DNA of 64,000 nucleotides, from sequence record NC_027381.1, one strand, 5' to 3'. The DNA is from Escherichia phage Pollock. Under the pieces are notes generated by a model. That model was not told where the DNA came from and did no database searches. It worked only from the letters and a program-made list of their open reading frames with translations. Made by a program: the position numbers and the translations under genes. Positions 1,375 through 63,508 of this stretch are shown here, piece after piece; position 1 is the stretch's first letter; each line of letters starts with the position of its first letter.

Positions 1375-1561
1375 AGAATTAGTTTTAATCCTTAAAGAAA
1401 TAAAAAGAGTATCTGAAACTTCTAAACATGGATGTACTGGTAGTAAATTTAAAGAATTATTTCGTTGTTTAAATGTATCTTGTGGAGTATGTATATTAAA
1501 TAATATACAAAATCCAAAAAAGTATAATTATCAAATATTCTCTATTCCAATAAATCTATGA
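1367..1561 (+). CDS. small Cys-rich protein (paralogue family)
   Basis: 64 aa; MNKELVLILKEI N-terminus; Cys pattern ending C-x4-C-x2-C; overlapping start/stop with neighbours. Confidence 0.4.
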   Translation: MNKELVLILKEIKRVSETSKHGCTGSKFKELFRCLNVSCGVCILNNIQNPKKYNYQIFSIPINL

Positions 1562-1770
1562 ATAAACAATTTATTCTTATATTGGATTCAATTAGGGATT
1601 GGGCAAAATCAGAATTTTCTTGTAAGGGTGGACTGTTAACTATACGCGATACATATATAAATGAACATTTATGTGGGTATTTATGTACCTCATGCCCTAT
1701 TGTTCAAGTAAGAAGTAAACAACTTTATCCCGACCAAATCATTCAAACTTCCTCTCAACTAATTAAGTGA
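1558..1770 (+). CDS. small Cys-rich protein (paralogue family)
   Basis: 70 aa; MNKQFILILDSI N-terminus; Cys pattern ending C-x3-C-x2-C; stop overlaps start of RNAP large subunit. Confidence 0.4.
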   Translation: MNKQFILILDSIRDWAKSEFSCKGGLLTIRDTYINEHLCGYLCTSCPIVQVRSKQLYPDQIIQTSSQLIK

Positions 1771-3005
1771 GACTCAATATGCAACAGTTTACAGCTTTCC
1801 AATATATCAAATTAGATATTGCTAACTCTTTTGGTTTAGATAAAGAACTGTTTGATGACCGTATCAAATGGTTTGAAGAAAACAAAAATAATTTAGCTAA
1901 TTTGGTAAATGATGCAGATGAACCTGCTCAATTCTACGCAGGTATGTTGGCATACCAAGATGTACTGGAAGGTAAACCAATTGGTTATTTAGTAGGTATG
2001 GATGCTACTGCATCTGGATTGCAGTGTATGGCTGCATTAACTGGCTGTAAGACTACCGCTGAAACAGTAAATCTTATTGACCCTAATTGTCGTAAAGATG
2101 CTTATACCGATGGCTATAAAGTCATGGGAGAACTACTTAATGGCAAGATTGATAAGATTGACCGTAAGGATTTGAAGGGAGCTATTATGACTCACTTCTA
2201 TGGTTCTCAAGCAAATCCTAGAAGTGTATTTGGTGAAAATACTATAGAACTACAAAAGTTCTATGAAACTGTTCAAACCATTGCTCCCGGTGCAAATATG
2301 CTACGAGATGATTTAATCAATCTCTGGCAACCAAAAGCACTTCAACATTTATGGGAATTACCAGATGGCTTTACTGCTGTCGTTAAAGTAATGACCATGA
2401 AAGAAGAAAGCTTTGAAGTAAATGAATTAAATAGTTCCTTTACTCATCGTTATTGGGTTAATGAGGGTCAGGATTTTGGTTTATCACTTGCTGCTAATGT
2501 TGTTCACTCTGTAGATGGGATGGTAGTACGTGAGATGAATCGTCGTGCTAACTACGATGAAACCAAAATACAGCGTGTATATGAGCTTCTGACTGGTTCA
2601 AACAATACAGGTATTGTGGACTATACAGTAGATGATAAACAGCTTAAGAGAGCTATTGAGCTTGCTGAAAGACATCGTTTTGTTTCTACTGTGATGATTG
2701 AGTTCATTAACCATGAGAATGTACATATGATTCCTTTATGGATTAAGAACCAACTCATCGAAATTATTGAGAAGATGTTGGCTCATAAACCATATGCATT
2801 AATTGCAATTCATGATTGCTTTAAATGCCATCCTCTGTATATGAATAACGTGCGTCAGAACTACATTGATATCTTTGCTCAGATTGCAGATAGCACAATG
2901 CTTCAAGCAATTGCATCTCAAATCTCTGGTAAACGTATTCCAGTAACTAAACTGTCTAATGACCTTTCAACATACATTCGTAAATCCAACTACATGCTTA
3001 GTTAA
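1767..3005 (+). CDS. T7-like single-subunit RNA polymerase, catalytic C-terminal-half subunit (N4 RNAPII large-subunit-like)
   Basis: RIKWFEENKNNL (cf. T7 RIKFIEENHENI), GMDATASGLQ (motif A, cf. DGSCSGIQH), IMTHFYGSQ (motif B, cf. MTLAYGSK), IAIHDCF (motif C, cf. IHDSFGT); T7 sequences recalled from memory. Confidence 0.85.
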   Translation: MRLNMQQFTAFQYIKLDIANSFGLDKELFDDRIKWFEENKNNLANLVNDADEPAQFYAGMLAYQDVLEGKPIGYLVGMDATASGLQCMAALTGCKTTAETVNLIDPNCRKDAYTDGYKVMGELLNGKIDKIDRKDLKGAIMTHFYGSQANPRSVFGENTIELQKFYETVQTIAPGANMLRDDLINLWQPKALQHLWELPDGFTAVVKVMTMKEESFEVNELNSSFTHRYWVNEGQDFGLSLAANVVHSVDGMVVREMNRRANYDETKIQRVYELLTGSNNTGIVDYTVDDKQLKRAIELAERHRFVSTVMIEFINHENVHMIPLWIKNQLIEIIEKMLAHKPYALIAIHDCFKCHPLYMNNVRQNYIDIFAQIADSTMLQAIASQISGKRIPVTKLSNDLSTYIRKSNYMLS

Positions 3006-3014
3006 GGAACTTCT

Positions 3015-3395
3015 ATGTCCATTTTCACTAATGTAACTATTACCATTGACCCATTAGGTCATTACGTATCTATACCTCGTGACCGTATCCGTGATTCTTT
3101 AGGATACATTCCTCAAATTGTGGAACGTGGAGTACGTCAAGCCAAAGATGAAAAAGATGCTGGTTTCTGGATTTGGACAATTTATCAGTATGGTAATCCT
3201 CTAAATCCACCTGAAACCAAATTGAAATTTAAAGATGGTATTCTGACCTATCCAAAAGAAGAACCAAAATATCCAATAGCTGTTTATCACCTTAATAATG
3301 TTGCCGGATTAGATATCCGGTTTTGGCAATATGAACATGCTATGACTGTATATACAGTTAATGGTAAAGCAATTTTATTCGGGAGAATGGATTAA
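3015..3395 (+). CDS. hypothetical protein
   Basis: 126-aa ORF, co-directional and tightly packed. Confidence 0.4.
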   Translation: MSIFTNVTITIDPLGHYVSIPRDRIRDSLGYIPQIVERGVRQAKDEKDAGFWIWTIYQYGNPLNPPETKLKFKDGILTYPKEEPKYPIAVYHLNNVAGLDIRFWQYEHAMTVYTVNGKAILFGRMD

Positions 3396-3736
3396 TGATT
3401 AAAGTAGGTAATATGGTCAGAATGGTCTTTACTAAAGACCCAGAACAACATACATCCAATGTAATAATCAAAGGGTTATACATGGATAAAGCATGGGTAA
3501 TGTATGAACAGTCAGGTAAAGATGAAATTATTGATTTAGCTGACGTAAGCTTTGGCAACCCTATTCCAGAAGAACCTGCAAATCATTCTTTTGTAGCCAG
3601 AGACTATAGTGGTAATTGGCTATATTGGGACCATAAAAAAGGTTACTGGTATGAATGCAATGACCCAACACAACACGAAGAACAAGAAGTCTCTTTACCG
3701 ATTAATCAAAGCAAGCCAACTCAACCCATTTACTAA
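3395..3736 (+). CDS. hypothetical protein
   Basis: 113-aa ORF; start overlaps the upstream stop (ATGA-type). Confidence 0.4.
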   Translation: MIKVGNMVRMVFTKDPEQHTSNVIIKGLYMDKAWVMYEQSGKDEIIDLADVSFGNPIPEEPANHSFVARDYSGNWLYWDHKKGYWYECNDPTQHEEQEVSLPINQSKPTQPIY

Positions 3737-6704: not shown

Positions 6705-6788
6705 ATGCGTCCTACAGCTATTAAAAAAGCTATTGAAAGAGCTTTTGCAGCAGGACTTGTTCCTTTTATTAAAGGTAGTCCGGGTATT
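6705..6788 (+). CDS. MoxR-like AAA+ ATPase, exon 1 (ends inside Walker A: ...FIKGSPGI)
   Basis: ATG 6705; reading frame stops immediately after GSPGI (TGA at 6789); the GKS that completes the P-loop is at 7179. Confidence 0.55.
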
Positions 6789-7178
6789 TGATTTTACAAG
6801 ATACCCTAAGCAGTGATGCTTAGTAAAAAATCCCTTGAATTGCTGGAAACCCTTAAAGCTGAATTAACTACTGCGAGTTGAAAAACAAAGCCAATGTTTA
6901 AAAATAATTCAGATATGTAGGCAATCAGCAGCCAAGCTCCTAAGGTTTAGGATATTAAGCTATGGAGAAGGTTCAACGACTAGGCGTAAGCCGTACACTC
7001 AAGTGAGTGGAAGTGGGGGACTCTTTACAAACTTACCACCATGGAATACCTTTTGTATTTGCAAAGAAAGGTCTATGTCGTAAATGTAGTAAAGATGAAG
7101 ATATAGTCTCGTCTTATGTGAAAGCATAAGCTGTTTAATAAACAGAGGGTAGCTTAACGAACTACCCTGAAGATTACG
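6789..7178 (+). ncRNA. group I intron 1 (ORF-less), interrupting the AAA ATPase Walker A
   Basis: ~390 nt between exon end (last nt T) and exon 2 (preceded by G); contains AACGACTAGGCG...CTCAAGTGAGTGGAAG core-like element shared with intron 2; exact boundaries approximate. Confidence 0.5.
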
Positions 7179-7421: not shown

Positions 7422-8265
7422 TAAATTAATAGGCATTTATGGGGGAAACCTCATATCTAAAGCTACTTAAAACGGGGAACTCTTAGTAGTGTATATACAC
7501 TAAAGACAATCCGTTGCTAAATAGGAATTAAGATGCAAGAAGTTTGGAAAGCTATTCCCGGATATGAGAAAGAATATGAAATTTCTACTCATGGACGGAT
7601 TAAGAGTTTAGATAGAGTCGTTCCTTGTAAACATGGCACTCGCCTTGTTAAAGGAAAATTATTAAAAACCTATATTAATCGAAAAGGGTATTTAATTGTT
7701 ACTTTATCTAAAGAAAATAAACTGAAAACATATACCGTACATCAGTTAGTTGCTCTTACATTTATTCCAAATTTCATTAAAGGCACAGAAATTAATCATA
7801 AAGACGGTAATAAATCCAATCCAGTATTAGATAATTTAGAAATTAGCAACCCTAGCCATAACCAGTTACATGCTATAGCTACAGGTCTTAAAGCAAAGGT
7901 TGGTAAGAGTAAATACCACAATGTAACTTACATTAAAAACCCACGGGCTAAGAAAAAGTGGGCTGCAAGTATAAGTTATAATGGGGAAAAATCTTTTGGA
8001 TGGAAAACATTTATGACAGAAGAAGAAGCTGCAAGATATGTAGATAAACTTCTTGATGAAATAGGTGATACTTCCCGTTTAAGAAATTTCTAATTAATTC
8101 CTTAAATGCCCAACGACTAGTCGAAAGACGTAGGCTCAAGTGAGTCGAAAAAGTAGCTCCCCAAACAAGTAAAGTTGTGGGGATTGATATAGTCTGCTCT
8201 ATATAGAAATATATAGCTGGATTAATTATCCGGGTAATGATTAACGACCATTACTGAACATAAGG
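7422..8265 (+). mobile_element. group I intron 2 carrying an HNH homing endonuclease ORF (td-like)
   Basis: 7462-7530 CTTAAAACGGGGAACTCTTAGTAG...AGACAATCCGTTGCTAAATAGG closely matches the phage T4 td intron core as recalled; ORF begins right after this element; 3' part has CAACGACTAGTCG...CTCAAGTGAGTCG. Confidence 0.65.
7533..8093 (+). CDS. HNH homing endonuclease (intron-encoded)
   Basis: 186 aa; N-terminal WKAIPGYEKEYEISTHGRIKS, HNH core NHKDGNKSNPVLDNLEISNPSHNQLH, C-terminal AP2-like DNA-binding region. Confidence 0.8.
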   Translation: MQEVWKAIPGYEKEYEISTHGRIKSLDRVVPCKHGTRLVKGKLLKTYINRKGYLIVTLSKENKLKTYTVHQLVALTFIPNFIKGTEINHKDGNKSNPVLDNLEISNPSHNQLHAIATGLKAKVGKSKYHNVTYIKNPRAKKKWAASISYNGEKSFGWKTFMTEEEAARYVDKLLDEIGDTSRLRNF

Positions 8266-57492: not shown

Positions 57493-59115
57493 CTAAACCA
57501 GATAACTATCAATTCCATTGGTTTGATGAGGTGTAGACATATCCCATATACTATCTTCTTGTACGGCTCCTGAGATGCCCTGAGATGGTTTCCACACCTT
57601 CAAACAAGACAACATACTGATGGTATCAATGAAGTCATCATGCTTACTTTTAAAGCCTTCTACAGTAGCCATACGAAGTTCATCCATAGCTTCAAGCATG
57701 ATTTTTTCTTCCTTCATTTCTTCAGGGAAGTAAAACTTACCTGTTTTAAACCAAGGAAGTACTGTATTGAATCTCACCATCTTATTGGTATTAGGTCTAA
57801 TACCCGGTCTATTGTTATTGCCTTCAGAAGCAAAGTTAAACCAGATATTACGTCTCATCATCTCATCCTGAAGTAGAGGGATGAATCCACCTTGTTGACC
57901 TGTAACTTCAATACCTACAGATTGAGGTTGGTATTCAACTACCAATCTAAATAAATCATCGAAGTTTTTATCCATAAGCTGACGTCTACAGATACCATCA
58001 ACCCAGAACCAGTCACCATTACTATTGATAGCCCATACAGATATTACAGAGAAGTCTGCTGATTGCTTATCAGAGGTAGCAAAGTCAGTAGTGATATAAA
58101 AATTAAAATGCCCTCTATTCAGTAGTAGAGATTTACGTTTATACCACTGAATATCTGACTCAAGAATTAGTCGTTCTTCATCAGAAGTAATACGTAACAT
58201 CAATTCTTGGTTAAATGCAGCTACCTGTCCTGTAGATACAGCAAGGTCATACTGACCTTTAACAAAGTCATAAGAGAATCTGTCTTCCCATGCTCCTACA
58301 AATTCTTCTCTCGTACATGGGAATTTCTCACATATTGGGAATACGTTGACGTACCAACCCCCAGACTCAACAGCTTCATAAAGAATATCGTTCTTGTTAA
58401 AGGGTGTGCCACTGAAAACAATTTTTCTACGAGTAGGGTCAAGAGCATAGTCTACTCCTTTATACACAGTATCTTTAATTGCCTGCATTGTGCTCTTAGA
58501 TTTAGCATCATCATCACTAACCAAATCATCAAGCACAGCTAAAACAGGACGTTTACCAAAGATTTTAGTACCACGTAAACCAGTTTTAGCACCAAACATA
58601 CGAACACCTAACTTATGTCCATCAGCATTAGTAAATTCTAAGTAGGCATCAGTGAATTTAGCTTCAGGAATGTACTTCTGAAGAAATTCAGAGTTGTTAT
58701 AGCGATATTCGATGTTTTTTCTTAATGATTTAACCCCGTTTTCCATAGAATCCGAGATATAAATCATACCCTCGATTTCACCAAATCCATCAATTTCACC
58801 ATAAAGTGCTATGTATAAAACTAGATACTCACCAAATAGAGTAGTTTTAGCCATACCACGAGAACATAGATTAGCTAATCGAGTACGTTTACCTGCTAAT
58901 TCATCTAACATCTTAAGATGAACTACAGGAGTTAGATTTGACTCTCCTGCTTCACCATTAACTAACTTAATAAAGTTAACGTAATTAAGTGCGAATACAG
59001 AAGGAACATAATTTCCAGAGTTCAAGGAAGCATAATCGACAGAATTAAGCCATTCCTCTACTGTCTTTTTAACCATTGGGTCTTCTTTAATCGACACGTT
59101 CTGATTCCCCATCAA
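57493..59115 (-). CDS. terminase large subunit
   Basis: 540 aa; Walker B-like VLAVLDD; C-terminal nuclease-like FYITTDFATSDKQSADFSVISVWA. Confidence 0.7.
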   Translation of the reverse strand: MMGNQNVSIKEDPMVKKTVEEWLNSVDYASLNSGNYVPSVFALNYVNFIKLVNGEAGESNLTPVVHLKMLDELAGKRTRLANLCSRGMAKTTLFGEYLVLYIALYGEIDGFGEIEGMIYISDSMENGVKSLRKNIEYRYNNSEFLQKYIPEAKFTDAYLEFTNADGHKLGVRMFGAKTGLRGTKIFGKRPVLAVLDDLVSDDDAKSKSTMQAIKDTVYKGVDYALDPTRRKIVFSGTPFNKNDILYEAVESGGWYVNVFPICEKFPCTREEFVGAWEDRFSYDFVKGQYDLAVSTGQVAAFNQELMLRITSDEERLILESDIQWYKRKSLLLNRGHFNFYITTDFATSDKQSADFSVISVWAINSNGDWFWVDGICRRQLMDKNFDDLFRLVVEYQPQSVGIEVTGQQGGFIPLLQDEMMRRNIWFNFASEGNNNRPGIRPNTNKMVRFNTVLPWFKTGKFYFPEEMKEEKIMLEAMDELRMATVEGFKSKHDDFIDTISMLSCLKVWKPSQGISGAVQEDSIWDMSTPHQTNGIDSYLV

Positions 59116-59788: not shown

Positions 59789-59898
59789 TCCAATAGCATC
59801 TATAGTTAGTCTATAGGTACTATATAGTACTTTTTAATAAAAATAGAAGATACTTAAGAAAGGAAGCTATAGAAGTGTTACTGATACATCTTTTGTTT

Positions 59899-59922
59899 AA
59901 GCACCTTCGGTGCTTTTCTTGG
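59899..59922 (+). promoter_or_regulatory. recurrent motif: hairpin AAGCACC-TTC-GGTGCTT followed by TTCTTGG
   Basis: fourth instance; in divergent region at the start of the plus-strand block. Confidence 0.4.
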
Positions 59923-60086
59923 AAAAATATAAAGGTGAAAACCAGAGGATAAGAGCTTTCTTATCCAGAGGTTGGCAAAAGAGTCATATCAGTCATAATG
60001 TATTCCTTGAGTGAGATACGAACAGAATGTTCGTTTCAGCAGTTTGATTGAATTCTCACTTGTTATCACTCTTTTAAGGAAATGTT

Positions 60087-60239
60087 ATGGATAGGCGCTA
60101 CTGTTCGTCTTGCGGTACATTGCAATATAAGTGCCCTGAATGTGGTGAATGGTTTACTAAAAAGAGAAGTGACCAAGTTTTATGTAGGCCGAGTTGTAGA
60201 CAAAGAAAGTCTAGAAGAAAGAAAAAAGAGCAAGAATAA
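60087..60239 (+). CDS. small zinc-ribbon protein (50 aa)
   Basis: AAGGA RBS 6 nt upstream; CSSC...CPEC...CRPSC Cys pairs; basic C-terminus; followed by terminator; not in ORF track (<60 aa). Confidence 0.35.
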   Translation: MDRRYCSSCGTLQYKCPECGEWFTKKRSDQVLCRPSCRQRKSRRKKKEQE

Positions 60240-60247
60240 TGAAAAAT

Positions 60248-60272
60248 AAGCCTCTATTTGAGGCTTTTTATT
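60248..60272 (+). terminator. rho-independent terminator
   Basis: aagcctc-tattt-gaggctt followed by tttatt. Confidence 0.55.
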
Positions 60273-60307
60273 GAATTAAACATTTAATCTAATGTATAAA
60301 GCATTCA

Positions 60308-60384
60308 CGGAATGTAGCACAGCCGGGTAGTGCATCTGCTTTGGGAGCAGAGGGTCATAGGTTCAAATCCTATCATTCCGACCA
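60308..60384 (+). tRNA. tRNA-Pro (anticodon UGG)
   Basis: hand-folded cloverleaf: acceptor CGGAATG/CATTCCG, anticodon loop TTTGGGA, T-loop TTCAAAT, encoded CCA. Confidence 0.75.
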
Positions 60385-60389
60385 AATTA

Positions 60390-60467
60390 TTCCCGTTTAG
60401 CTTAATTGGTTAAAGCACCCGACTCATAATCGGATGATTACAGGTTCGAATCCTGTCACGGGAACCA
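60390..60467 (+). tRNA. tRNA-Met or Ile2 (anticodon CAU)
   Basis: hand-folded: anticodon loop CTCATAA, T-arm ACAGG-TTCGAAT-CCTGT, encoded CCA; exact 5' end ambiguous by 1 nt. Confidence 0.65.
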
Positions 60468-60471
60468 AAAT

Positions 60472-60547
60472 GCATCCTTAGCTCAATGGATAGAGCAGTA
60501 GCCTTCTAAGCTATTGGTTACAGGTTCGAATCCTGTAGGATGCACCA
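60472..60547 (+). tRNA. tRNA-Arg (anticodon UCU)
   Basis: hand-folded: acceptor GCATCCT/AGGATGC, anticodon loop CTTCTAA, T-loop TTCGAAT, encoded CCA. Confidence 0.75.
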
Positions 60548-60552
60548 TATTA

Positions 60553-60637
60553 GGGAGTATGGTGAAATTGGTAAACACAAGGGATTTAAAATCCCTCGCT
60601 TAATTGCTTACGAGTTCGAGTCTCGTTACTCCCACCA
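60553..60637 (+). tRNA. tRNA-Leu (anticodon UAA)
   Basis: hand-folded: acceptor GGGAGTA/TACTCCC, anticodon loop TTTAAAA, long variable arm, T-loop TTCGAGT, encoded CCA. Confidence 0.75.
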
Positions 60638-61491
60638 AATTAGTGCTCTGGTATATTATGTTTAACTCTTAGGTTATGCACAGTATTACAACAGATTGGG
60701 TCATCTGAAATCAGAGCACTAATCCTATATGAACCAGGTATGAACAACTTACTTAGTATTAACAATTCCGCATAGGGGTATGTTTGGGTTGTTGGTGGTA
60801 AGTAGCTGGTTAGAATCCAGCATGGTTCATTAATTAATTGCCATTCTCTTATGGCGATTGGGATAGCACGCTGGCTCTGCTTAAACCAGCATACAACAGG
60901 TAAGAGCACTGAATGTTGACTGGCTTAGCATACCAAATCCAACATTGTTGCCGCAGTGCTCTTACCGTTGTAGCGACCCTGCAACACCGAAGACCGAAGC
61001 TTTTCCTTCCCTGCTTTTTGGGAATAGCACTTCAAACAGGTATATCCTGTATATGTATCAAAGGCGTAAAAACTGGAGATACCAGAGTACTAGAACTCTG
61101 TTACCAAACTCAGGGAGTGATTGGCCTAACCAATCCAACATCCTATCAATGAGTGTACTGAGATAACGTGCGGAGGTTTACACTGTAGCCGGTGTAAATA
61201 GAGAAGACGGCAAGATAGCTACTTGTTCTTAGTGCACTCTTTGATAGTTTTCGTGAGCGACTTTGCGGACTTTTTAGAAACTGACCTCAAAGATAAATGC
61301 AAACGATGATGTTGTTCTGATGGCGGCGTAATAGCCTATAAATCAGCAAGGTCTTCCGATTCCTTGTAAACAAATTCGGCGCACTGGCCCGGTGTGATTA
61401 ATAATGGGCAACTACATCCCTCTAAGGGTATTTAATTAAGTATTCTTAAAGGGATGGGTACTCTCTATCTCCGTAAACATGTCAACTCTTT
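60638..61491 (+). other. ~0.85 kb apparently non-coding, structure-rich region (candidate structured RNA or cis-acting DNA element)
   Basis: no convincing ORF; multiple long inverted repeats (13-bp perfect GGTAAGAGCACTG/CAGTGCTCTTACC at 60899-60965); visibly more GC-rich than flanks; bounded by tRNA-Leu and a strong terminator. Confidence 0.3.
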
Positions 61492-61520
61492 GCCTCTATT
61501 AATTAGAGGCTTTTTTTTTT
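61492..61520 (+). terminator. strong rho-independent terminator
   Basis: gcctcta-ttaat-tagaggc hairpin followed by T10. Confidence 0.7.
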
Positions 61521-61534
61521 ATCCCAATTACTGC

Positions 61535-61588
61535 CTTACGCTTACGCGCTTCCATCGCTCACTACGTTCGCTTGGAGCGCCCGCTTCA
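61535..61588 (+). promoter_or_regulatory. GC-rich CGCTT-repeat cluster upstream of early gene (candidate promoter/operator)
   Basis: CGCTT occurs four times in ~55 nt (cttacgcttacgcgcttcc...cgttcgcttggagcgcccgcttcagg) in an otherwise AT-rich genome. Confidence 0.25.
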
Positions 61589-61612
61589 GGCATTATTGTA
61601 GGAGATTTTATA

Positions 61613-62641
61613 ATGGCTTCCCCTTGCGAAATGCTAGGTTATGAAGAAGGAATGAGATTTGTTGTAGTTAGTCCTAATGAGGAGTTCTCAGTAGGAGATA
61701 CTATATGGCTACATCATGATGATAAATCTCATTGTCCTCTCTTCCGAGATACTGAAGAAGATAATGAAGATGCTAATACCGATTACTGTTATTTAAATAA
61801 TGTAGCTCCTTATTCAGAATCTCATACTCTTGCTTATAACCGTGGATTCAGAAAAGGTGATATTTTATTAGTTACCGAAGATGATGAAGATGAAGATGCA
61901 TTAGCAGGAGATATTGTTACCTTCATCCATGATGATGGTGATACTTGTCCTAAATTTAAAGTACATAGAACTGGTACTGAAGAATATCTCTATCTAGGCT
62001 GTATTGATAGTCTGAAACCAAAAGTTGGCCGTAAAGTTCGTATCATTTATAACTGTACTGCAGGTCATCCATCTGGTTCAGAAGGCATCATCGAAAAAAT
62101 AGATGCAGATGGTGATTTAATGATAAATGTTGATGGTACGTGTTGCTTTCATCATCCATATTCTTGTGTTGTATTTGGTTATTCAGAAGATGAATTATCA
62201 GACAATACAAAATCTGAACCAAAAACAGAATGGACTACTAAACCAGCTTCTGAATGGAAAAAAGGTGATAAAGGAATTGTTCGAGGACAACAGAAATCTG
62301 ACCAACACAATTTCAATATTGGTGCAGAAGTAACCTTTATATCTCATGCTTGGGAAAACAGAGGTCGCTTTGAATCCCCCTCATTCCATCGTTCTCAGAC
62401 AGTTGAATATGATTTGATTGAACCAATTGAATCAAATAAACCATCTGAAACCAAACCAACAGTAGTAGCTGTTGATGAACTTACGGATGTCTCTGGTAAG
62501 TACAAATACTTTATTGATGGTGATTCTATTGAAGTAACTTTAGTTGGTTACTTTGAAGGGGAACCTATCTGTGCATATAAAGACAGATGGGGAGATACTC
62601 AAGTATTCGTTGCTAAGCCTTCTCTACTAGTAAAAGAATAA
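61613..62641 (+). CDS. hypothetical acidic protein (early)
   Basis: ORF track start 61454 rejected because the terminator lies inside the extension; ATG 61613 preceded by GGAG RBS; DEDEDA-type acidic stretches. Confidence 0.45.
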   Translation: MASPCEMLGYEEGMRFVVVSPNEEFSVGDTIWLHHDDKSHCPLFRDTEEDNEDANTDYCYLNNVAPYSESHTLAYNRGFRKGDILLVTEDDEDEDALAGDIVTFIHDDGDTCPKFKVHRTGTEEYLYLGCIDSLKPKVGRKVRIIYNCTAGHPSGSEGIIEKIDADGDLMINVDGTCCFHHPYSCVVFGYSEDELSDNTKSEPKTEWTTKPASEWKKGDKGIVRGQQKSDQHNFNIGAEVTFISHAWENRGRFESPSFHRSQTVEYDLIEPIESNKPSETKPTVVAVDELTDVSGKYKYFIDGDSIEVTLVGYFEGEPICAYKDRWGDTQVFVAKPSLLVKE

Positions 62642-63422: not shown

Positions 63423-63433
63423 CCCCCCCCCCC
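63423..63433. repeat. homopolymeric C11 tract
   Basis: 11 consecutive C in an AT-rich intergenic region upstream of ORF 63509. Confidence 0.9.
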
Positions 63434-63508
63434 ATACTTCACACATTGATGAGTCTTCGACTCTAGTGGAGCAATGGTGCTCTACTTAATCATGATTAGG
63501 AGTATGTT

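Follow-up and report, generated by a model that had tools for sequence, protein, structure and literature searches.

Transfer-messenger RNA (tmRNA, the product of ssrA) and its partner SmpB form the main ribosome-rescue and protein-tagging system of bacteria. Separately, prophages are known to encode anti-sRNAs or sponge RNAs, such as AgvB and AsxR of enterohaemorrhagic Escherichia coli, which base-pair with host non-coding RNAs. Phages also meet trans-translation directly: tmRNA is a host factor for some of them, for example in plaque formation by lambda-immP22 (PMC2481249), and a 2025 tmRNA database paper lists, as phage forms, only standard tmRNAs and the template-less form of mycobacteriophage DS6A (PMC11915505). 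Here we describe positions 60638-61520 of Escherichia phage Pollock (NC_027381.1), a non-coding region directly downstream of a tRNA cluster; the 64,000-nucleotide stretch that was analysed is referred to as the window. The 3′ module of this region (61243-61415, on to the terminator) is read here, with about even confidence, as an anti-tmRNA RNA with a surrogate tag template, which would form the end of a polycistronic non-coding transcript, dock on host tmRNA and replace its tag.

The module resembles tmRNA (RF00023) in having a GCA resume codon, U and A at −5 and −4, a ten-residue tag of the AND....AA type, stop codons in a helix similar to H5 and an H-type pseudoknot after the template. However, it lacks an acceptor stem, G3:U70, T-arm, CCA and pseudoknot 1 (PK1), contains one pseudoknot only and scores far below the Rfam cut-offs, and it carries a putative antisense block against tmRNA, which no tmRNA has. 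The closest sequence models, including the AUAAAUGCAAACGA context, are those of the two-piece tmRNAs (RF01849, RF01850, RF01851 and RF04321), in which a template RNA must likewise base-pair with a separate, acceptor-bearing RNA. In those, however, the two pieces derive from one gene and are joined via the acceptor and P2 helices, whereas the presumed partner of the phage RNA is a complete host tmRNA, contacted at its template region. As with the AgvB and AsxR type of sponge, a phage or prophage RNA would pair with a host non-coding RNA, and some copies of the Pollock family lie in lambdoid late leaders, but here the target would belong to the housekeeping RNAs of translation, not to the Hfq sRNAs (small RNAs), and the antisense is joined to a template that looks functional. 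GOLLD and ROOL are also long, highly structured, non-coding and tRNA-adjacent in phages, but the Pollock region is modular and rearranging, with no one conserved fold. These and other known large RNAs were rejected, as a search of 59800-62000 gave no Rfam family at E<=1 besides tRNAs, except weak two-piece tmRNA matches at 61278-61380, and nothing but tRNAs reached the gathering score. Lastly, phage tmRNAs and the DS6A form, which inhibits host tmRNA, are phage-borne RNAs aimed at trans-translation, as is proposed here; they are either complete or restricted to the tRNA-like domain (TLD), whereas the Pollock RNA would be the reciprocal, template only plus antisense (PMC11915505).

The first ~45 nt of the 3′ module are complementary to nt 68-106 of ssrA, that is, to the 3′ part of PK1, the linker, A86, the resume codon and codons 1-6. 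The seed, (G)AUAGUUUUCGU, is perfectly complementary to E. coli ssrA nt 97-106 (ACGAAAACUA, codons 3-6); GCGACU pairs with ssrA 86-91 (A86 through G90 and C91, the first two bases of the resume codon), UUGCGG with 75-80 and CUUUUUA with 68-74, with a predicted extension to nt 52-66. The reverse complement of 61243-61298 aligned to ssrA 68-106 with a score of 32, against a mean of 14.7 and a maximum of 27 in 5000 shuffles. About 40 distinct family variants all align colinearly to the same ssrA interval despite lineage-specific indels and substitutions: the N4-like GCGAUUAU pairs with AUAGUCGC via a G-U, and the Kuttervirus version covers AGUC-CGCA-AACGA-CGAAAAC. Complementarity to host ssrA was greater than that to the phage's own template in 38/38 variants (means 31.3 vs 13.3), and it is exactly at codons 3-6 that the phage template departs from the host template. 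Cofolding of 61243-61425 with ssrA placed 40 intermolecular pairs in the antisense block, with host A86-C91 paired to 61257-61262 and host 97-106 to 61245-61254, and favoured the dimer over the monomers by 14.5 kcal/mol; a dimer was predicted for 17 of the 18 variants tested.

Across 111 gammaproteobacterial ssrA genes, from genera such as Escherichia, Citrobacter, Enterobacter, Klebsiella, Erwinia, Serratia and Pectobacterium, the target hardly varies. This near-invariance accounts for the high conservation of the seed across phages, and also makes host-phage co-variation of seed and target uninformative in Enterobacterales. BLAST against E. coli genomes is blind to the complementarity because its blocks are shorter than 11 nt, and alignment-based tests were used in place of RNAduplex energy scans because the energy background is too high (median −29 kcal/mol). 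An Rfam alignment had suggested that (G)AUAGUUUUCGU is a homologue of the tmRNA D-loop GGAUUCGAC; this was dropped because the motif is the exact complement of ssrA 97-106 and because, in other phages, promoters start the RNA there. Judged from sequence, 61243-61288 is a predicted antisense block against the template-entry region of host tmRNA.

The block is followed by an A-rich linker and a putative tag template encoding ANDDVVLMAA and two stops, compared with ANDENYALAA and two stops in E. coli ssrA. In tmRNA, A86 is the main frame determinant and U85 also sets the frame (PMC2481249); in the phage family the corresponding U(−5) and A(−4), as well as A(−3), are invariant in 37 sequences. The tag frame beginning at GCA 61299 has neither a start codon nor a Shine-Dalgarno sequence, and an AUG overlapping the template is not conserved, being absent from Kuttervirus. 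A family set of 50 non-identical members was assembled from phage records and an IMG/VR scan with ATAAATGCAAACGA. All 26 distinct nucleotide versions in these 50 loci contain exactly ten codons followed by a stop, with tags that include ANDDVVLMAA, ANEEMYLAVA, ANDNTFLAVA, ANDNVFLAVA, ANDDLMMVAA, ANDDLMLMAA, ANDEQFLAVA, ANEEAYLMVA and ANDTEFKAAA. Differences between templates fall mostly at third codon positions (879/721/1396 for positions 1/2/3), and the last Ala is found in all four of its codons. Moreover, tag residues 7-10 are A, V, M or L in 98% of cases, a value that reached at most 94% in 2000 column shuffles. The weak Rfam two-piece matches cover this same stretch, tmRNA models giving 15-34 bits against cut-offs of 47-84; the best tmRNA-model scores were 22.8 bits for the window and 33.7 bits for phage KpCHEMY26, none of them at the gathering score. 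No second copy of the element was found in the window. The pattern points to a complete-looking template under constraint at the level of the peptide.

Downstream of the template, covariation of four elements (the H5-like helix, a hairpin and stems S1 and S2 of the H-type pseudoknot) was tested on a 37-sequence alignment by sliding of partners and by 500 shuffles. The outer H5-like helix is paired in 95.8% of cases with double-sided changes in 4/4 pairs (A-U to G-C in 17/37 sequences), whereas the inner helix is weaker (74% paired). The following hairpin is 98.4% paired, with compensatory changes in 3/5 pairs (C-G/U-A 18:18). In the pseudoknot, S1 and S2 are 96.8% and 85.5% paired with double-sided changes in 7/9 pairs, and S2 is enlarged to GGCGGGAG/CUCCCGCC in Kuttervirus. 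Taken together, 91.6% of cells pair in the four elements, and displacing the partners by 1-3 columns lowers this to 39-45%; double-sided changes occur in 15/21 pairs, and none of the 500 shuffles reached any observed measure. RNAalifold independently recovered the 61347-61366 hairpin and S1. One S1 pair is a G-U in 32/37 sequences, which fixes the strand as +. Two further structural candidates were discarded: the stem-loop CGCAC-UGGCCCG-GUGUG is not a T-arm, its loop pairing downstream in the pseudoknot and growing to 15 nt in Kuttervirus, and the P2a-like GCGACUUUGCGG had, on inspection, no covarying partner elsewhere in the region.

These observations suggest the following model. Phages, prophages and P1-type plasmids of Enterobacterales would carry a parasitic 'coding piece' that turns the one-piece host tmRNA into a hybrid two-piece one, so that rescue continues with the tag re-coded; we put this forward tentatively, as somewhat less than an even chance. 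The conserved hairpins and tRNA-like structures would release a 5′ end beginning with the seed, and the phage RNA would then hybridise to host alanyl-tmRNA-SmpB. Host A86 and the host resume codon would be buried in the duplex and the host template masked, with the duplex taking the place of the dispensable PK1. In their stead, the phage resume codon with its own U/A determinant would be presented on a linker of 10 or ~22 nt, its length differing because the extent of pairing past ssrA nt 68 differs. Rescued ribosomes would then attach a tag set by the phage (ANDDVVLMAA here) in place of the ClpXP degron ANDENYALAA. ClpX recognises ..LAA, and phage tags ending ..LMAA, ..LAVA or ..MVAA differ from it. 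Possible benefits to the phage are that tagged proteins are spared ClpXP, or that ribosome recycling is kept while host tagging is disabled. Both PK1, which is dispensable or replaceable, and the tag sequence can be exchanged in tmRNA (PMC2481249).

Several points weigh against this model. Hybrid formation and use of the phage template are deductions from sequence, and the ribosome and SmpB would have to accept a template tethered by base pairing alone. RNAduplex energy alone discriminates weakly (z = −5, with one shuffle nearly as good), one Felix O1-like variant had no predicted cofold dimer though its reverse complement aligns to ssrA, and the extent of pairing past ssrA nt 68 is variant-dependent. 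In an RNAalifold prediction the antisense block also pairs in cis with GCAAACGA of the phage itself, which could account for some of the conservation of the block. A long imperfect duplex could instead trigger cleavage of tmRNA by RNase III. Moreover, the set of 111 ssrA genes left out Salmonella, and the host of Pollock is assigned from its relatives only.

The main rival, which we hold to be unlikely though well short of negligible, is that the RNA is purely an antisense inhibitor or sponge. It would block tmRNA over A86, the resume codon and codons 1-6, or target it for cleavage by RNase III or RNase E, so that host tagging stops; the template would be untranslated, either left over from an ssrA fragment that was captured or serving to decoy SmpB or S1. 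An inhibitor would suit the complementarity, for which the support is strongest, and the lack of a TLD, as well as the fact that base pairing around A86 inactivates tmRNA (PMC2481249); a TLD-only phage form that inhibits host tmRNA is also on record (PMC11915505). However, a leftover would not be expected to hold exactly ten sense codons and a stop in 26 nucleotide versions, nor an invariant U(−5)A(−4), synonymous turnover at third positions and an always-hydrophobic C-terminus, and compensatory changes maintain the H5-like helix and pseudoknot downstream of it.

We next consider whether the missing domain could be supplied by the phage itself. ARAGORN found no tmRNA in the window and none in 10 related loci, and a complete tmRNA was rejected, as neither ARAGORN nor Rfam detected a TLD. 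In 4 + 46 further loci its tmRNA calls were unrelated genuine tmRNAs, mostly permuted, together with one call overlapping a tRNA-Met (locus L073) and a single long-range call within the family, in the Felix O1-like locus L016. The latter combines the template with a permuted tRNA-like junction located 480 nt upstream, on the far side of three tRNAs, to give a 749-nt permuted tmRNA. The junction itself (L016 2510-2466, − strand) reads T-arm, ACCCUUC, GCCA, AACA, GAAGGGU, D-arm. This call, the fact that the best Rfam similarities are to two-piece models, the abundance of tRNA-like structures (including T-arm-bearing hairpins) in the Pollock region, N4 and phage St11Ph5, and the occurrence in viral contigs of real permuted tmRNAs with ATAAATGCAAACGA would all fit a genuine phage two-piece tmRNA, with the module as coding piece and an acceptor piece (T-arm, acceptor stem and CCA) elsewhere in the region. 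We regard this as improbable. No equivalent of the L016 junction was found in the window, HK620 or the siphophages, and the HK620 locus has no tRNA or tmRNA gene called by ARAGORN at all. The tRNA-like structure in the window has G3-C70 and no CCA, and the stem before the module in N4-like phages covaries without keeping G3:U70 or CCA. In particular, the seed-adjacent stem GAGUGUACU/AGUGCACUC was rejected as an acceptor stem with G3:U70 because the G-U of the window is replaced by C-G in phage B2. A two-piece tmRNA would also leave the specific complementarity to host ssrA unexplained.

The start of the module in other phages bears on the same question. Consensus sigma-70 promoters start the RNA at the seed in the siphophage Bas81 (TTGACA-17-TAGATT) and in a Felix O1-like phage (TTGACA-17-TATAGT), and no acceptor 5′ strand precedes it. 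In loci lacking a promoter, the seed comes immediately after a long hairpin, next to its 3′ arm, the junctions being ...UGCUCUUUCC/AGUUUUCGU in four IMG/VR contigs (L028, L030, L031 and L086), ...GUGUUCUUUCC-GAU/GGUUUUCGU in HK620 and ...AGUGCACUCUUU/GAUAGUUUUCGU in Pollock. In the four contigs, the seed AGUUUUCGU lies inside a GGUAAGRGC-type hairpin, cis-paired with ACGAAA(C/U)C(U/C)GG, an upstream mimic of the tmRNA target; this may represent an auto-inhibited precursor. For the anti-tmRNA RNA, the mature 5′ end would lie at (GA)UAGUUUUCGU (the same site as (GA)UAGUUUUCG), arising from transcription start where a promoter is present and, in Pollock, from endonucleolytic cleavage (RNase III, E or P) at the foot of the hairpin before it.

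Table 1. Coordinates of features in and around the tRNA-linked non-coding region of phage Pollock (positions in the window).
Feature	Position	Strand	Details
Terminator before the tRNAs	60248-60266		next terminator only at 61492-61520
tRNA-Pro(tgg), Met(cat), Arg(tct), Leu(taa)	60308-60637	+	ARAGORN; Rfam tRNA 62-75 bits; 5′ part of transcription unit
Hairpin, perfect 12-bp stem	60639-60723	+	AUUAGUGCUCUG/CAGAGCACUAAU; recurrent GAGCAC/GUGCUC duplex; 91% identical to N4
tRNA-like structure	60729-60830	+	8-bp acceptor-like stem AUGAACCA/UGGUUCAU, long central arm, T-arm-like hairpin
Two small conserved hairpins	60836-60892	+	UUGCCAU..AUGGCGAUU; GCUGG-CUCUGCUUAAA-CCAGC; 85-94% identical in Humphriesvirinae relatives
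Long hairpin, family 'CAACA-GGUAAGAGCAYU ... ARUGCUCUUWCC-GUUG'	60893-60972	+	CAACA-GGUAAGAGCA...UGCUCUUWCC-GUUG; bulged A, 13-bp perfect core, inner AAUGUUG/CAACAUU
Three small conserved hairpins	61031-61137	+	ACAGG..CCUGU 61036-61050; CAGAGU-ACUAGA-ACUCUG 61083-61100; GAUUGG-CCUAA-CCAAUC 61120-61134
Hairpin with 21-nt arms	61143-61247	+	CUAUCAAUGAGUGUACUGAGA / UCUUAGUGCACUCUUUGAUAG; two small hairpins inside; 87% shared with G7C-like phages
Predicted antisense block	61243-61288	+	GAUAGUUUUCGU-GA-GCGACU-UUGCGG-A-CUUUUUA-GAAACUGACCUC; reverse-complement alignment and cofold
A-rich linker	61289-61298	+	AAAGAUAAAU; U61294 and A61295 at −5 and −4 of resume codon (tmRNA U85 and A86 positions)
Putative tag template	61299-61334	+	GCA AAC GAU GAU GUU GUU CUG AUG GCG GCG UAA UAG; ANDDVVLMAA and two stops; no start codon
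H5-like helix, stop codons in apical part	61317-61346	+	outer 61317-61320 with 61343-61346; inner 61325-61327 with 61334-61336
Hairpin	61347-61366	+	CAAGG-UCUUCCGAUU-CCUUG
H-type pseudoknot	61380-61409	+	S1 CGCAC 61380-61384 with GUGUG 61392-61396; S2 GCCC 61387-61390 with GGGC 61406-61409
Lineage-specific 3′ hairpin	61415-61456	+	CAUCCCU...AGGGAUG; kept in Humphriesvirinae, some compensatory changes
Intrinsic terminator closing the unit	61492-61520	+	GCCTCTA-TTAAT-TAGAGGC + T10; stem covaries among relatives

The features of the region are listed in Table 1. By sequence comparison, 60638-61520 appears as a string of separable RNA modules that are reordered between N4-like and unrelated enterobacterial phages. 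BLAST analysis revealed that 60638-60831 is 82-91% identical to phage N4, where it directly follows tRNA-Pro, that 60837-60915 and 61031-61654 are common to Humphriesvirinae, that 61138-61410 is common to G7C-like phages (88%) and that 61243-61415 shares 94-98% identity with ~46-kb siphophages; in total, 782 phage records have some match to the region. Phage N4 itself does not have the anti-tmRNA module. The GGUAAGAGCA hairpin lies 400 nt upstream of the 3′ module here, and directly after it in St11Ph5, HK620 and P1. In Bas81 the order is promoter, module, hairpins, tRNA-Ser, tRNA-Arg and terminator, the reverse of that in Pollock. About 20 distinct copies of this long-hairpin family were found in the loci examined (St11Ph5, two each in HK620, Bas81 and P1, and IMG/VR phages), usually flanking the anti-tmRNA module, and its motif is enriched in the window (5 matches vs 0.6 expected).

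In the tRNA-like structure, the T-arm-like hairpin GCUGG-UUAGAAU-CCAGC (60808-60824) abuts the 3′ strand, and the T-like stem of the N4 homologue shows a compensatory change, to GUUGG/CCAAC; neither ARAGORN nor Rfam makes a call there. Siphophages have the GCUGG-CUCUGCUUAAA-CCAGC hairpin too, shortly before a tRNA, which in Bas81 is tRNA-Ser. The three hairpins of 61031-61137 are 83-85% identical in seven Humphriesvirinae relatives, with compensatory changes in the first and third (RNAalifold). The stem of 61143-61247 covaries between the window and B2 (G-C/U-G vs A-U/C-G), its interior is exchanged in relatives for other inserts, some of them T-arm-bearing and tRNA-like, and its 3′ arm overlaps the first 5 nt of the antisense seed. 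Our guess is that the conserved hairpins and tRNA-like structures serve as processing punctuation. It might alternatively be argued that the region is decayed tRNA and tmRNA debris with RNase-processing hairpins, functionless beyond the spacing and processing of tRNAs, given its location in a tRNA cluster, its tRNA-like remnants and a module order that is scrambled between phages. This we consider very improbable: debris would not be expected to show 94-98% identity across unrelated phage families, helices upheld by compensatory changes, dedicated promoters and constraint at the level of codons.

Comparable regions occur elsewhere. N4 (980-2500 of the examined locus) and St11Ph5 (1530-3400) have unannotated, tRNA-linked non-coding regions of 1.5-1.9 kb with several tRNA-like elements (T-arms GGUUCGAxUCC in long stems, acceptor-like stems ending CCAA) that no tool called. 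In KC139517 (Salmonella phage FSL SP-058) the GenBank tRNA features lie ~1.1 kb away from the tRNA positions given by ARAGORN, and because of this displacement the annotated tRNAs fall inside a 609-bp 'hypothetical protein' coding sequence. Klebsiella phage Pylas carries an amber-reading tRNA (anticodon cta, annotated as tRNA-Pyl; locus 1502-1577) where its relatives carry tRNA-Arg(tct), and this may be a suppressor tRNA.

Pollock is an N4-like podophage (Schitoviridae), whose nearest relatives are the Ithacavirus, Pylasvirus and Triduovirus phages SP-058, B2, S5, KpCHEMY26, Pylas and TR2, at a DNA identity of only 70-80%. The large terminase gene lies at 57493-59115 on the − strand. As terminators bracket the tRNAs and the 880-nt stretch, with none between, the two form one + strand unit (about 60300-61520). 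A candidate promoter, TTGAAT-N18-TATAAA, was noticed upstream of tRNA-Pro by eye only, and a promoter scan made no call there.

The original prediction, made from the letters of the window, had described a non-coding region rich in inverted repeats, of raised G+C content and closed by a terminator, and each of these points was borne out. The repeats were recovered at exactly the positions given or within a few bases of them: ATTAGTGCTCTG/CAGAGCACTAAT (60639-60650/60712-60723, 12 nt, 100% complementary), GGTAAGAGCACTG/CAGTGCTCTTACC (60899-60911/60954-60966, 13 nt, 100% complementary, with AATGTTG/CAACATT inside) and GTTTACAC/GTGTAAAT (about 61177-61198). To these can be added the 21-nt arms at 61143-61163/61227-61247 and a 24-nt palindrome at 61415-61456. 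The hairpin and T10 of the closing terminator are present, G+C is 0.38-0.465 in the region against 0.29-0.36 in the flanks, and 60638-61520 contains only short overlapping open reading frames (ORFs; 89, 79 and 73 aa), none with a PHROG match. The + strand folds with a minimum free energy of −292 kcal/mol, compared with −232 ± 8 for dinucleotide shuffles (z = −7.2; − strand, z = −6.5).

The same prediction had suggested a large structured RNA co-transcribed with the tRNAs. A + strand RNA sharing their unit agrees with the terminators, with the covariation of helices and with G-U pairs that would be C-A on the other strand. A single large molecule does not stand up: the Rfam check returned no such family, and sub-segments are common to different phages in differing orders. 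The other suggestion, a cis-acting DNA element such as an origin, pac site or genome terminus, found no support and, together with a frameshifted protein gene, is one we regard as barely credible. The dense inverted repeats near the terminase genes, and the 'hypothetical proteins' that relatives annotate over parts of the homologous stretch, might point that way. However, the G-U pairs are specific to the + strand (32/37 at one pair), terminators bracket the unit, and the modules occupy unrelated genome positions in other phages, being mid-genome in G7C-like phages, in the pR′ late leader of HK620 and beside dmt in P1, with sigma-70 promoters of their own elsewhere. The ORFs, besides having no PHROG match, are not conserved, and other records annotate ORFs on either strand or none.

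Further features of the window were noted. A 50-aa ORF with CxxC...CxxC and a basic tail (60087-60239) has its own terminator and lies just upstream of the tRNA operon, and a run of ~11 C occurs in AT-rich intergenic DNA at about 63425-63436, close to the window end. Far from the tRNA-linked region is a group I intron (6778-7130, + strand; RF00028, 101 bits, E = 4e-25), which is followed by a 186-aa HNH-type endonuclease-like ORF (7533-8093).

Lastly, we sought the anti-tmRNA module in other records. It was found in 759/50,697 phage records, its carriers being N4-like phages, ~46-kb siphophages, HK620/HK633, P1, D6, Kuttervirus and other Ackermannviridae, Felix O1-like phages and Erwinia phages. 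In HK620 and HK633 it lies between pR′/qut and the late terminator, and in P1 and D6 after dmt, beside tRNA-Asn/Thr. Of 5426 complete E. coli genomes, 591 contain the module, at 150 chromosomal and 484 plasmid places; in the records listed, the annotation over it is nothing or occasionally 'hypothetical protein'. The family as a whole almost never carries an RNA annotation. The HK620 leader from pR′/qut to tQ (locus 1276-1947, ~650 nt) consists of a hairpin, the anti-tmRNA module and a further hairpin. The pR′ promoter of lambda is constitutive; if that of HK620 is so by analogy, the element would be made in lysogens. Full-text literature searches, with subscription-only papers outside their reach, returned no prior description of such an element, which is apparently both widespread and undescribed.

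If the anti-tmRNA reading is true, the module would represent a new way for a virus to subvert host translation quality control, by silencing tmRNA or by swapping its template, and would be a natural demonstration of a tmRNA template supplied in trans. It would also provide a role for an element that goes unannotated in hundreds of well-studied phages (P1, HK620, Felix O1, Kuttervirus, G7C-like and T1-like) and in about one ninth of complete E. coli genomes, which matters for annotation because spurious 'hypothetical proteins' are called over these RNAs. Moreover, even without lytic infection, a re-coded ssrA tag could be in use in about 11% of sequenced E. coli, since the element occurs in the HK620 pR′ leader as well as in other prophages and P1-type plasmids.

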